Source: Candidatus Stygibacter australis (lineage in GTDB: Bacteria > Cloacimonadota > Cloacimonadia > Cloacimonadales > TCS61). Taken from it: 64,000 nt of DNA. Position numbers and translations under genes: made by a program. Location of the stretch: positions 83,947 through 147,946 of the forward strand of contig JAVCDJ010000203.1 in assembly GCA_030765845.1 (NCBI GenBank), given 5' to 3'. The notes beneath the pieces were generated by a model. The model did not search any database. It was not told where the DNA came from and saw only the letters and a list, made by a program, of their open reading frames with translations. Positions 55,106 to 57,077 of the stretch are shown here, one piece after another. The number at the start of each line of letters is the position of its first letter. Positions within the stretch are counted from its first letter, which is position 1.

Positions 55106-55813
55106 ATGGAAAACACTGATTTAAAAATCGGATTAGCAATGTTAGAGGATGTTGAAAATGACTTAGAAGCAACATATGGTAATGTTCTTGCCTGGGGACC
55201 TATTACAAGTATCGAAGGCTTTAATGGAAGAGGAGCAACACAAAGGCTGACAAAAGATTTGAAAGTTGCTAAAAAGAAAATTGGCGATTTCCAACAAGGT
55301 CAAGCAAAAGCAGCCTTTTTAATGGGAAGAATTTGTGCTGTTGGTGTGGGTAGAGATTTTAGCCATCGGATACACCTTAAATGTATGAAATATTATGAAG
55401 AAGCAATTGAATTAGGTTATGATGAAGCGATAGTGAAGTATTGTATGGCTAAACATAAAGATGCCTGGGATAAAAAGAAGGCATCTATTGAACTTTACGA
55501 GAGAGTTGTAGAATTAATGGGGATTGATAATCCCAATGGAATGGATTCAGCAAAGCAAATAGAAAAACTTAAATCAAAAAAAGGTTGTTTCATTGCGACA
55601 GCAGTATATGGTTCCTATTCTGCACCTGAAGTCATAGTGTTAAGAAGATTTAGAGATGACATTTTATTACCTTCGCAAATTGGAAGTATTTTTGTAAAAT
55701 TCTATTATCTTACTTCACCGCCTATTGCGAGGTTTTTAGAGAAACATAAACTTCTGCAGAAATTTGTCCGAGATTTTATAATTCAGCCTATTGTGAATTT
55801 GTGTAAAAAATAA
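55106..55813 (+). CDS. Hypothetical protein: Sel1/TPR-like N-terminal part and a C-terminal GCFIATAxYGS-type conserved domain
   Basis: 235 aa. SD AAGGAG. No signal peptide. C-terminus [31 protein letters not shown]...[16 protein letters not shown] is a recurrent domain of unknown function that I recognise by motif only. Confidence 0.6.
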   Translation: [235 protein letters not shown]

Positions 55814-55838
55814 TAATTAATCTATTTATGGAGGGAAA

Positions 55839-56696
55839 ATGGATAAAATTCAAGAAGTGATCGATGAGATTATAGAAGAACCATATACGATGGCATTTTG
55901 CTATAATTGTGGAACAGAAAATCAAGATGCAGAAGAAAATGATATATGTAAAAACTGTGGGGAAAAAATATCACTATCAATTAATGAATTAAAAGGAAAA
56001 ATCAAGCGATATTGCCGAGAATGCGGAGAGCAAATTAATGAATCAGAGGATTATTGTTTAGCTTGTGGTATGGATATAGAATTGTCTACTGAAGATTTGC
56101 TCTGCATGGTATTGTTAGAACTTATTGAAGAAGAAGACCGTAAAGATGCTCTTGAATTCGGTAAGAATTTACTTGAATATCTAGAAGGTCATTATCAAAG
56201 GTTTGTGGCTTCAGGTTTTATGAAATCAATATACGGTGAATTATTTGTAGAGAAGTTTGGAAATTCATCTCCTGATCTTACTTTTGCACAAATACCTGAT
56301 AGTGAGTTAAATGATGATATTTTCGCAAGCATACTAGAATATTCTCAAATTACAATCGAAGAATTTAACCAACTTCCATCAAAAAGAAAGCAGATTCTTG
56401 AAAAATTTCCATTAAGAAGGAAAATGATTCAAGATATGAAGACAATTTGTTATGAAGGACCAATTGAGTTGGCTAAACGTGGTTTAACTAATAAATCAAA
56501 CAATCCCCAAGCTACAAAAAAAACTTATAAATATTCATCACATGGTTCATTTCAGGGTTCAAAAGGTATACTTATACTTTGGGGAAGTTTAACATTAATT
56601 TCTTTAATTTGCTTAATTGCTGGTTTGGGGGGGCTCTTCTCTATGATATTGTTTGGTGCAATAACTTACTATTATTGGAAATCGAAAACAATATAA
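55839..56696 (+). CDS. Double zinc-ribbon protein with a C-terminal two-helix membrane anchor
   Basis: 285 aa. SD GGAGGG. CYNCG...CKNCG and CRECG...CLACG. C-terminus GILILWGSLTLISLICLIAGLGGLFSMILFGAITYYYW. Confidence 0.6.
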   Translation: MDKIQEVIDEIIEEPYTMAFCYNCGTENQDAEENDICKNCGEKISLSINELKGKIKRYCRECGEQINESEDYCLACGMDIELSTEDLLCMVLLELIEEEDRKDALEFGKNLLEYLEGHYQRFVASGFMKSIYGELFVEKFGNSSPDLTFAQIPDSELNDDIFASILEYSQITIEEFNQLPSKRKQILEKFPLRRKMIQDMKTICYEGPIELAKRGLTNKSNNPQATKKTYKYSSHGSFQGSKGILILWGSLTLISLICLIAGLGGLFSMILFGAITYYYWKSKTI

Positions 56697-56752
56697 TTAT
56701 TTAGAGGAGTTTAAATAACATTTATCAAATCAGGTGATAGATGTAAAATTGT

Positions 56753-56781
56753 AAGAATTGCAGAATATTTCTGCAATTCTT
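56753..56781 (+). terminator. Perfect 13-bp-stem hairpin after the zinc-ribbon gene
   Basis: AAGAATTGCAGAA-tat-TTCTGCAATTCTT. No strong U-tract. Confidence 0.45.
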
Positions 56782-56906
56782 CGCAAAATAACTTACACAG
56801 TGTATTTGAGCAAGGATTTAATCCTGACAGGTCAATTCCATCAAAATGTGTGGGCAAGGTAAGTTAAGTGTATTAAGTGAAAAATTATTAACAAGGAGAA
56901 ATTATT

Positions 56907-57077
56907 TTGAGCAAACCAAAATCCAAAACAACAAATTATAGTGGCATCTCAGATGCACTTTCCGGAACCAAAACCTATAAGACGAAAATTTCCGATGGGA
57001 AAAAAAGTGTATCTGCATTAGGATCGCCAAAGACTTCACAAAAGCGAGCTTCAGATAAGTGGAATAAAAAGAAGTAG
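56907..57077 (+). CDS. Small basic Lys/Ser/Thr-rich protein (56 aa), not in the ORF track
   Basis: TTG start 7 nt after AAGGAGA. My translation: MSKPKSKTTNYSGISDALSGTKTYKTKISDGKKSVSALGSPKTSQKRASDKWNKKK. Confidence 0.35.
   Translation: MSKPKSKTTNYSGISDALSGTKTYKTKISDGKKSVSALGSPKTSQKRASDKWNKKK

Follow-up and report, generated by a model that had tools for sequence, protein, structure and literature searches.

Apparent exchange of C-terminal tails between a CFI-box protein and a double zinc-ribbon protein encoded side by side in Candidatus Stygibacter australis

What do two small adjacent genes in a low-GC island of Candidatus Stygibacter australis encode, and do they act together with the AbiL-type genes directly upstream of them? 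The genes, designated P1 and P2, are located on contig JAVCDJ010000203.1 (assembly GCA_030765845.1) of this bacterium, which represents a Cloacimonadota lineage described from an Antarctic lake (PMC8542988). The whole stretch of DNA analysed, hereafter ‘the window’, comprises 64,000 nt (contig positions 83,947–147,946, forward strand) and supplies all coordinates below unless another locus is named (Table 1). A preliminary description regarded P1 and P2 as an orphan gene pair, followed by a hairpin and a 56 aa open reading frame (ORF), and suggested a conflict, defence or membrane-signalling module. The comparisons reported here point to another relationship, in which two unrelated kinds of N-terminal head have exchanged two kinds of C-terminal tail.

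P1 is a CFI-box-CTERM protein, named but uncharacterized, and it already bears this name in the NCBI annotation of the Ca. Stygibacter australis genome. NCBIfam model NF041770 (CFI-box-CTERM) matches aa 161–226 over model positions 1–66 of 69, with 89.9 bits against a curated cut-off of 40 and an E-value of 6.6e-26; the domain is C-terminal and opens with Cys-Phe-Ile. The GCFIATAxYGS motif, which the preliminary description had recognized at the ends of many unrelated proteins and to which it assigned no established function, is thus that of NF041770, for which no Pfam model exists. The last 75 residues of P1 include the invariant C-F-I-A-T-A of the family; in 51 aligned sequences C161, I163, A164, T165, A166, L187, G193, Y200, S204 and P205 are invariant and F162 is nearly so. 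Nor is P1 an orphan, given the 88 relatives detected. About a dozen of these are full-length (31–75% identity), and the remainder match in the tail only, with heads that include TPR, ankyrin, cold-shock, FN3, LRR, peptidase and zinc-ribbon domains. Homologues of the P1 head occur in 11 fetched loci, several of which are duplicate contigs.

The AlphaFold 2 (AF2) model of P1 is entirely helical (mean predicted local distance difference test score, pLDDT, 93; predicted template modelling score 0.77), the head having seven helices and the CFI-box four. The latter form a confidently folded four-helix unit (pLDDT 92–97), for which Foldseek found no solved structural relative in the PDB. The best PDB matches of the head are TPR domains (Hop TPR2A, PP5 and designed CTPR), albeit weak ones, with E-values of 0.04–0.3 and target TM-scores of approximately 0.7 over 115–160 columns. 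Precomputed TPR matches are present in the P1 homologues P0009 and P0020. Pfam returned no family for P1 at E≤1, and so no TPR or Sel1 profile match. The fold comparison proposed in the preliminary description suggests no more than a weakly TPR-like head, and the profile search gives no backing to a TPR or Sel1 label. A hydrophobic segment is absent throughout P1, which accordingly has neither a TM (transmembrane) helix nor, as had been described, a signal peptide. The CFI-box of P1 has a net charge of +6 and 11 aromatic residues in 75.

P2 was correctly described as to its spacing from P1, its GGAGGG Shine–Dalgarno motif and its composition of a double zinc ribbon, an acidic helical middle and two C-terminal TM helices. 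Four CxxC motifs start at aa 21, 37, 59 and 73, forming two CxxC…CxxC units, and aa 21–79 pass the gathering thresholds of both Zn_Ribbon_1 (33.5 bits, cut-off 25) and DZR (27.4 bits, cut-off 27.3), generic Pfam modules that imply no function. The middle (aa 85–215) contains 25 D/E versus 16 K/R, and its sole family match is a weak one to DUF7863 (E 0.012). The only hydrophobic stretch of P2 spans 36 residues, aa 241–276 of 285, and is split by GLGG into two short helices.

The term ‘orphan’ does not hold for P2 either. A word-seeded search recovered P2 alone; an exhaustive search exposed a small family composed of P0112, the closest relative, and the more distant P0113–P0116 and P0122, to which P0037, listed among the relatives of P1, also belongs. 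Eight cysteines are invariant in the family alignment. Among the seven relatives read, six share with P2 both the double zinc ribbon and the helical middle but terminate in a CFI-box (GCFIATAVY...), and the remaining one, P0113, stops short of any tail. The hairpin of P2 occupies the position at which these six carry the CFI-box, and NF041770 gives no match on P2.

Comparison of heads and tails separately makes the exchange apparent. The P2 head matches that of P0112 over aa 1–221 at 42% identity (E 2e-61), and the P0112 tail matches that of P1 at 50% identity (E 2e-28). Conversely, the hairpin tail of P2 matches the tail of P0121 at 39% identity (E 1e-14), and the head of P0121 is TPR-like. 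When the P1 family was aligned with the P2 family by hhalign, only 83 tail columns aligned (probability 99.9%), and homology of the P1 and P2 heads was rejected on this basis. Two heads (TPR-like; zinc ribbon plus helical) and two tails (CFI-box; two-TM hairpin) are thus seen in a clean two-by-two shuffle, and P2 is by these alignments a tail-swapped member of a zinc-ribbon subfamily within the CFI-box group. P1 and P2 are adjacent members of one modular group defined by a variable N-terminal head and a C-terminal tail, the latter serving in localization on a tentative estimate a little short of an even chance.

Two further possibilities for a CFI-box in or after P2 were considered and rejected. 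MAFFT matched GSF, WGS and YYW.S in the hairpin tail to GCF, YGS and YY..SP of the CFI-box, as would be seen if the hairpin were a diverged CFI-box; however, hhalign gave this relationship a probability of 0.4%. A decayed CFI-box 3′ of P2 was likewise not found, as tblastn of two tails against 56300–57300 returned noise only. Separately, three contigs from independent assemblies of the same species (L182, L183 and L185) are identical to the window until they end within 12 nt of one another inside P2 (56446–56458, codons ~202–206), just 5′ of the head/tail junction, and three other same-species contigs read through this site. The coincident breaks suggest a branch in the assembly graph, created either by a strain that carries a different tail or by a repeat at some other genomic site; the other branch was not recovered.

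The order P1-like gene then P2-like gene recurs outside the window. In locus L006 a P1 homologue is followed after a 29 nt gap by P0112, and in L007 three consecutive CFI-box genes are found: a P1-like gene, P0114 of the P2 family in the middle, and a third. In L009 the P2-family gene is preceded by an integrase fragment and not by a P1-like gene. In 6 of ~13 readable loci a zinc-ribbon gene comes within two genes after a P1-like gene; among these loci are L004, L094 and L096, in which the zinc-ribbon genes are small and unrelated to P2. True P2-family genes follow just 3 of the ~13 P1-like genes, and the pairing is therefore facultative, although the linkage of the two genes given in the preliminary description is borne out by the recurring order. 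L001, with the closest P1 homologue (66% identity), has unrelated small genes (138 and 76 aa) downstream.

Several further arrangements were noted around P1-like genes. Immediately 3′ of those in two unrelated contigs (L004, 5741–5905; L096, 2305–2472) lies a conserved 54–55 aa Cys-rich protein (MATIKSGDRCADC..C..W...C.LY...GFHPDRPVPSKC..KVTRKY), after which come zinc-ribbon mini-proteins of 62–69 aa. Upstream of the P1 homologue in L004 (2591–4870) a 759 aa protein has a faint Peptidase_C13 (legumain/caspase-like) match and a Cys/His-rich end (…CDWAHKV…GYNGCRYCLPE) resembling a small zinc-binding module. A conserved trio of 116–121 aa (two TM helices), 89 aa and 152–164 aa proteins is located 3′ of a P1-like gene and p59, a small gene treated below, in L091 (1040–2166) and L097 (4768–5903).

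Beyond the close relatives of P1, a scan of one genome per species returned at least 589 confirmed CFI-box matches and a metagenome scan at least 565 more. Among the matches listed are Dehalococcoidia, Geobacteraceae, Nitrospirota, Gammaproteobacteria, Omnitrophota, Parcubacteria, Bacillota, Calditrichota, Thermoplasmata and Methanophagales; the domain is, judged by these matches, widespread, reaching many phyla of bacteria and several lineages of archaea. Most genome-derived members are 200–3400 aa long with signal-peptide-like N-termini, that is, of an exported type, and in 33 of 87 the box runs straight into a TM helix and then an Arg/Lys cluster.

Three layouts can be separated. Exported, TM-anchored members (n=19) have a signal peptide and a poly-Gly linker, then ‘LTPxVYxVKYP’, a TM helix and an Arg/Lys cluster, with a mean box charge of +2.5. 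Exported members of the Dehalococcoidia type (n=38) have a signal peptide and a mixed linker, end in ‘...VDPIVxxLxWSHDLWS’ without a TM helix, and have a mean box charge of −0.5. Signal-less, P1-like members (n=99) have a Lys-rich linker, no TM helix and a mean box charge of +4.1. Aromatic residues amount to ~14% in all three classes. Box charge tracks the predicted topology. Most NF041770 members from named genomes are thus large and exported, many with a TM helix and basic cluster, whereas P1 is small, lacks both signal peptide and TM helix, and differs further in its Lys-rich linker and strongly basic box.

The reading of these data that is tentatively preferred, with slightly less than even confidence, is that the heads of P1 and P2 are cytoplasmic binding heads tethered to the inner side of the membrane, with the CFI-box serving as a module for localization or assembly there. 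Both heads would stay in the cytoplasm, because neither protein has a signal peptide and zinc ribbons and TPRs are typical of cytoplasmic proteins. P2 would be held at the inner membrane face by its two-helix hairpin, and P1 by its four-helix CFI-box, which is basic and rich in aromatic residues and would lie on the membrane surface or assemble there; thus tethered, the heads may act as binding platforms for partners. TPR607, a TPR protein of the tail-anchored type encoded nearby, fits this picture. Consistent with such a tether are the direct abutment of box and TM anchor in more than a third of the genome-derived members, the replacement of the box by a hairpin in P2, and the basic box of the signal-less class. 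Of the options raised in the preliminary description, membrane signalling comes closest to this reading. Tail-anchored proteins, with a cytoplasmic head and a C-terminal membrane segment, offer a partial likeness. P2 has a single, Lys-flanked hydrophobic region at its extreme C-terminus and no signal peptide, and TPR607 has a single terminal TM helix; however, the predicted anchor of P2, whose insertion is likewise a prediction, is a 36-residue hairpin rather than one helix, and P1 has no hydrophobic anchor at all.

Several points weigh against a tether. Membrane association is deduced indirectly, since neither an experiment on the CFI-box nor a paper mentioning the domain was found. The CFI-box contains no TM-length hydrophobic segment, and its helices have modest hydrophobic moments. 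Members from named genomes are mostly exported, and if the box acts outside the membrane in these, a cytoplasmic role for P1 would require it to function from both faces. The low frequency with which true P2-family genes follow P1-like genes counts in the same direction, a domain swap does not prove that both tails do the same job, and the invariant Cys is not explained by a tether.

That Cys is central to a different proposal. C-terminal sorting signals such as LPXTG, PEP-CTERM and GlyGly-CTERM, recognized by sortase, exosortase and rhombosortase, respectively, consist of a motif, a TM helix and a basic cluster, and the exported CFI-box members share this overall layout following their poly-Gly linker. 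The CFI-box could then be, as the ‘CTERM’ of its name hints, a sorting or processing signal, with a dedicated enzyme recognizing it, cutting near the invariant Gly-Cys and linking the protein to a lipid or to a component of the envelope, and with P1 as a processed substrate. The invariance of Cys and the adjacent I-A-T-A, and the occurrence of the family in bacteria and archaea behind very diverse heads, are in keeping with this. P1, however, has no signal peptide, TM helix or terminal basic cluster, and members of the Dehalococcoidia type also lack the TM helix. The box is moreover a folded helical domain of ~70 aa in the AF2 model and not a short motif. Finally, clustering of 765 neighbouring ORFs from 80 genome loci produced no recurrent neighbour family, the largest cluster being response regulators in 9 loci, so that a dedicated enzyme or partner encoded beside CFI-box genes was rejected. 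A sorting signal is on balance unlikely. About as doubtful is the proposal that the CFI-box is a self-association module through which different heads co-assemble, P2 having left the assembly on losing its box. Tandem arrays of 2–5 CFI-box genes with differing heads (L007, L104, L130 and L137) invite this view, as do the compact helical fold with conserved hydrophobic positions and the far better conservation of box than head, the box being 44–59% identical to that of P1 among the relatives compared and the heads of P1 and the P2 family having no detectable similarity. However, only one CFI-box gene is present in ~88% of loci (70 of 80 in one count, 68 of 80 in a second), and self-association alone leaves both the TM helix after the box and the trend of charge with topology unexplained. 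Self-association is compatible with a membrane tether, the two not being exclusive. The largest tandem array observed, in L130 (3611–9353), has five CFI-box ORFs (343, 196, 197, 274 and 181 aa) in ~6 kb.

The defence function suggested in the preliminary description is very unlikely. Such a module could act with AbiLi and AbiLii, with which P1 and P2 share a repeat-bracketed low-GC block as immediate neighbours, or as a separate membrane-acting effector system. Integrase or transposase genes near relatives in L009, L091 and L092, a toxin–antitoxin-like pair in L005, and HigB/HigA-like, nSTAND3 and VWA genes near relatives of p59 would suit it, as would the match of one P1-type gene neighbour to CBASS (cyclic oligonucleotide-based anti-phage signalling system) 2TM effector models; the mobile-element signs, however, indicate an accessory-island lifestyle and not a function. 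P1 and P2 are not components of the AbiL pair: there is no homology, and AbiLi or AbiLii homologues occur in none of the other fetched loci with P1- or P2-type genes (L001–L010 and the metagenome and viral loci L091–L172). PADLOC-DB v2 gave no match for P1 or the 56 aa ORF and only marginal ones for P2, both over the zinc-ribbon region (ZorA, E 0.037; Cas12f, E 0.38); PHROGs gave nothing for P1 and generic zinc-ribbon matches for P2. The gene-neighbourhood comparison proposed earlier did find zinc-ribbon genes near P1-like genes, as above, but no visible defence enrichment: PADLOC matches were similarly sparse among 140 neighbours of P1-type genes (78 models) and 137 control neighbours (70 models), a coarse test in which the models come mostly from few proteins and the matching proteins are not counted exactly. 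Only 2 confirmed CFI-box loci were found in the 2.9 million viral contigs of IMG/VR. Strain variation of the island was rejected, all six same-species contigs examined holding the block with zero mismatches over the compared sequence. As far as these searches reach, the defence reading is unsupported, and nothing found ties P1 and P2 to the adjacent AbiL genes. It is also conceivable that P1 and P2 have no functional connection and became neighbours through gene flux in a variable island. The variable content 3′ of P1-like genes (the 138 and 76 aa genes of L001, a four-TM protein in L095, p59 in L097) and the exchange of the P2 tail itself are what such flux would leave; the recurrence of the gene order in L006 and L007 with 25–29 nt spacing, the homologous tail domain shared by relatives of both proteins, and the zinc-ribbon genes after P1-like genes in nearly half of the readable loci make it extremely improbable.

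Table 1. Features of the P1/P2 locus and the surrounding block, in window coordinates
Feature	Position	Strand	Remarks
Direct repeat, left copy (family D1)	52327–52391		82% identity to 60399–60463
AbiLi-type AAA ATPase	52539–53915	+	PADLOC AbiLi 3e-80; Pfam AAA_21 6.7e-31; context gene, functional link to P1/P2 not shown
AbiLii/RloB-like protein	53899–54513	+	Pfam RloB 2.9e-21; PADLOC AbiLii 5e-17; context gene
P1	55106–55813	+	235 aa; AAGGAG Shine–Dalgarno motif upstream
P1 head, aa 1–155	55106–55570	+	All-helical, weakly TPR-like, no signal peptide; AF2 pLDDT 93
P1 tail, CFI-box-CTERM, aa 161–235	55586–55813	+	NF041770; Lys-rich linker KSKKG just before
P2	55839–56696	+	285 aa; begins 25 nt after P1; preceded by GGAGGG
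P2 head, aa 1–215	55839–56483	+	Double zinc ribbon aa 21–79 plus acidic helical middle
P2 tail, two-helix hydrophobic hairpin	56559–56696	+	Lys-flanked; aa 241–276; maximum Kyte–Doolittle value 2.6
Perfect 13 bp hairpin	56753–56781	+	56753–56765 paired with 56769–56781; 3 nt loop; after P2
56 aa TTG ORF	56907–57077	+	AAGGAG upstream; Lys/Ser/Thr-rich (14 K, 11 S, 6 T); doubtful gene
Predicted lipoprotein, 185 aa	57254–57811	+	LILGC lipobox; N-terminal hydrophobic segment aa 3–28
p59	57818–57997	+	58 aa, likely start 57821; AF2 pLDDT 86, four strands plus helix
Beta-flower-like repeat protein, 110 aa, Gly-rich	58197–58529	+	Pfam Bflower_2 (5-fold beta-flower) E 0.0048, under cut-off
TPR607, 607 aa TPR protein	58548–60371	+	TPR_1 2.8e-60; TM helix aa 586–607; last block gene
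Direct repeat, right copy	60399–60463		Pairs with 52327–52391

The perfect 13 bp hairpin after P2 is present as described. Folding of the 210 nt spacer in which it lies beats 200 of 200 shuffles (z=−3.76). No T-run follows the hairpin and a terminator scan makes no call there; a terminator lacking the U-tract is possible. A known RNA in this region was rejected, as Rfam gave just a chance microRNA match (E 0.43) elsewhere. Of the small ORF that follows, both the reading frame (annotated by NCBI as MDP8322794.1) and the Shine–Dalgarno motif exist, an AAGGAG-type motif being found at just 2.6% of start-like triplets. Its status as a gene fares less well. The codon-usage score of 0.017 is at the level of 140 random small ORFs (mean 0.016, standard deviation 0.097) and far below the 0.15–0.25 of credible genes in the block. 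Homologues are absent from the related loci, the only cluster relative being an identical copy from the same species. From codon usage and conservation the ORF is probably spurious.

The block as a whole is a low-GC insertion between direct repeats, in agreement with its earlier assignment to an accessory region. GC content is 0.30–0.36 across ~52–61 kb of the window versus ~0.40 outside, and two copies of a 65 nt direct repeat, 82% identical and spaced 8072 nt apart, enclose the genes from AbiLi through TPR607. An 18 nt core of the repeat has exact matches in the window at the two repeat copies only (0.05 expected by chance), and a third site with two mismatches lies at 14830. The motif GTGGACGGAATGGA is found at both block ends (52425–52438 and 60633–60669), with a variant at 54674–54699 between AbiLii and P1. 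The 65 nt repeats and this motif may be att-like remnants of an insertion event or copies of a regulatory region; the repeat-bracketed block itself encodes no integrase. The upstream AbiL-like pair was rightly identified, as PADLOC and Pfam attest (Table 1). A second ATPase of the AAA_15/AAA_21/SMC_N type (579 aa, 42347–44083), 8 kb 5′ of the AbiL pair, may be another abortive-infection or OLD-like gene. The genes flanking the block are surface-protein genes: upstream (47536–52095) three Big_1/Invasin_D3 proteins encoded in a row (416, 604 and 484 aa), the second and third beginning with lipoprotein-like signal sequences, and downstream (60782–63163) a 793 aa protein with an N-terminal lamin-tail domain.

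Downstream of P2, the block encodes the highly conserved small protein p59. At least 822 relatives were found; those listed are 67–97% identical and come from Cloacimonadota, Desulfobacterota, Myxococcota, Schekmanbacteria, an Acetobacterium metagenome-assembled genome (MAG) and a Hodarchaeota (Asgard) MAG. The gene was seen in the window, L001, L066, L091, L092, L097, L104, L109, L117, L150 and L173–L179, and in 10 of the fetched loci, including two pairs of duplicate contigs, it directly adjoins a signal-less CFI-box gene. An obligate partnership with CFI-box genes was rejected, p59 not being adjacent to one in the Desulfamplus, Hodarchaeota and Myxococcota loci. In these three distant lineages p59 lies beside HigB/HigA-like genes, adjoins an ATPase_2/DUF234 gene, or sits between proteins with a TerD-like appearance on visual inspection, close to VWA and nSTAND3 genes. 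Likenesses to WGR, Sac7d or YegP (DUF1508), the last named in one UniRef label, were not supported. Pfam at E≤10 gave only faint Tudor/Chromo matches, no PDB sequence matched, and Foldseek found no match to the model in the PDB (all E>2) or BFVD (all E>0.3).

No homologue of the predicted 185 aa lipoprotein was found in related loci. The beta-flower-like protein has a 68% identical homologue together with a P1-like gene in L001 (2993–3331), and a 114 aa protein similar by eye, not by alignment, accompanies a P1-like gene in L096 (3248–3592); all three end in a hydrophobic ...LLLLIK/R. TPR607 is of the tail-anchored type, with a single TM helix at the extreme C-terminus (...KAGCLGTIFLMLFYCSCFLYLLL), none at the N-terminus and no signal peptide. 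The residues ‘GC’ immediately preceding this helix are loosely reminiscent of KKGC at the CFI-box. The MENTD start that TPR607 shares with P1 was rejected as homology, as there is no extended DNA similarity.

A wider hypothesis, distinctly unlikely as it stands, is that the signal-less CFI-box proteins, their heads being interchangeable, constitute one undescribed, horizontally mobile module, a new sensing or conflict system that would assemble at the inner membrane face with zinc-ribbon, beta-flower-like, TPR and p59 proteins as companions, and in which the invariant Cys would be chemically active, e.g. in acylation or in self-cleavage at Gly|Cys.

For the family as a whole, the CFI-box is a strongly conserved and very widespread domain that has a name but neither an assigned function nor a literature that could be found. 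The present analysis separates three architectural classes of CFI-box protein, removes the lead towards defence and flags the unannotated 58 aa p59, which is conserved at ~70–95% identity between distant phyla. The tail swap amounts to a natural experiment, in which each of two head types occurs with either a CFI-box or a hairpin tail. As read from these architectures it points to a localization role of the CFI-box at the membrane, and it gives a lead that can be tested on what this very widespread domain does.

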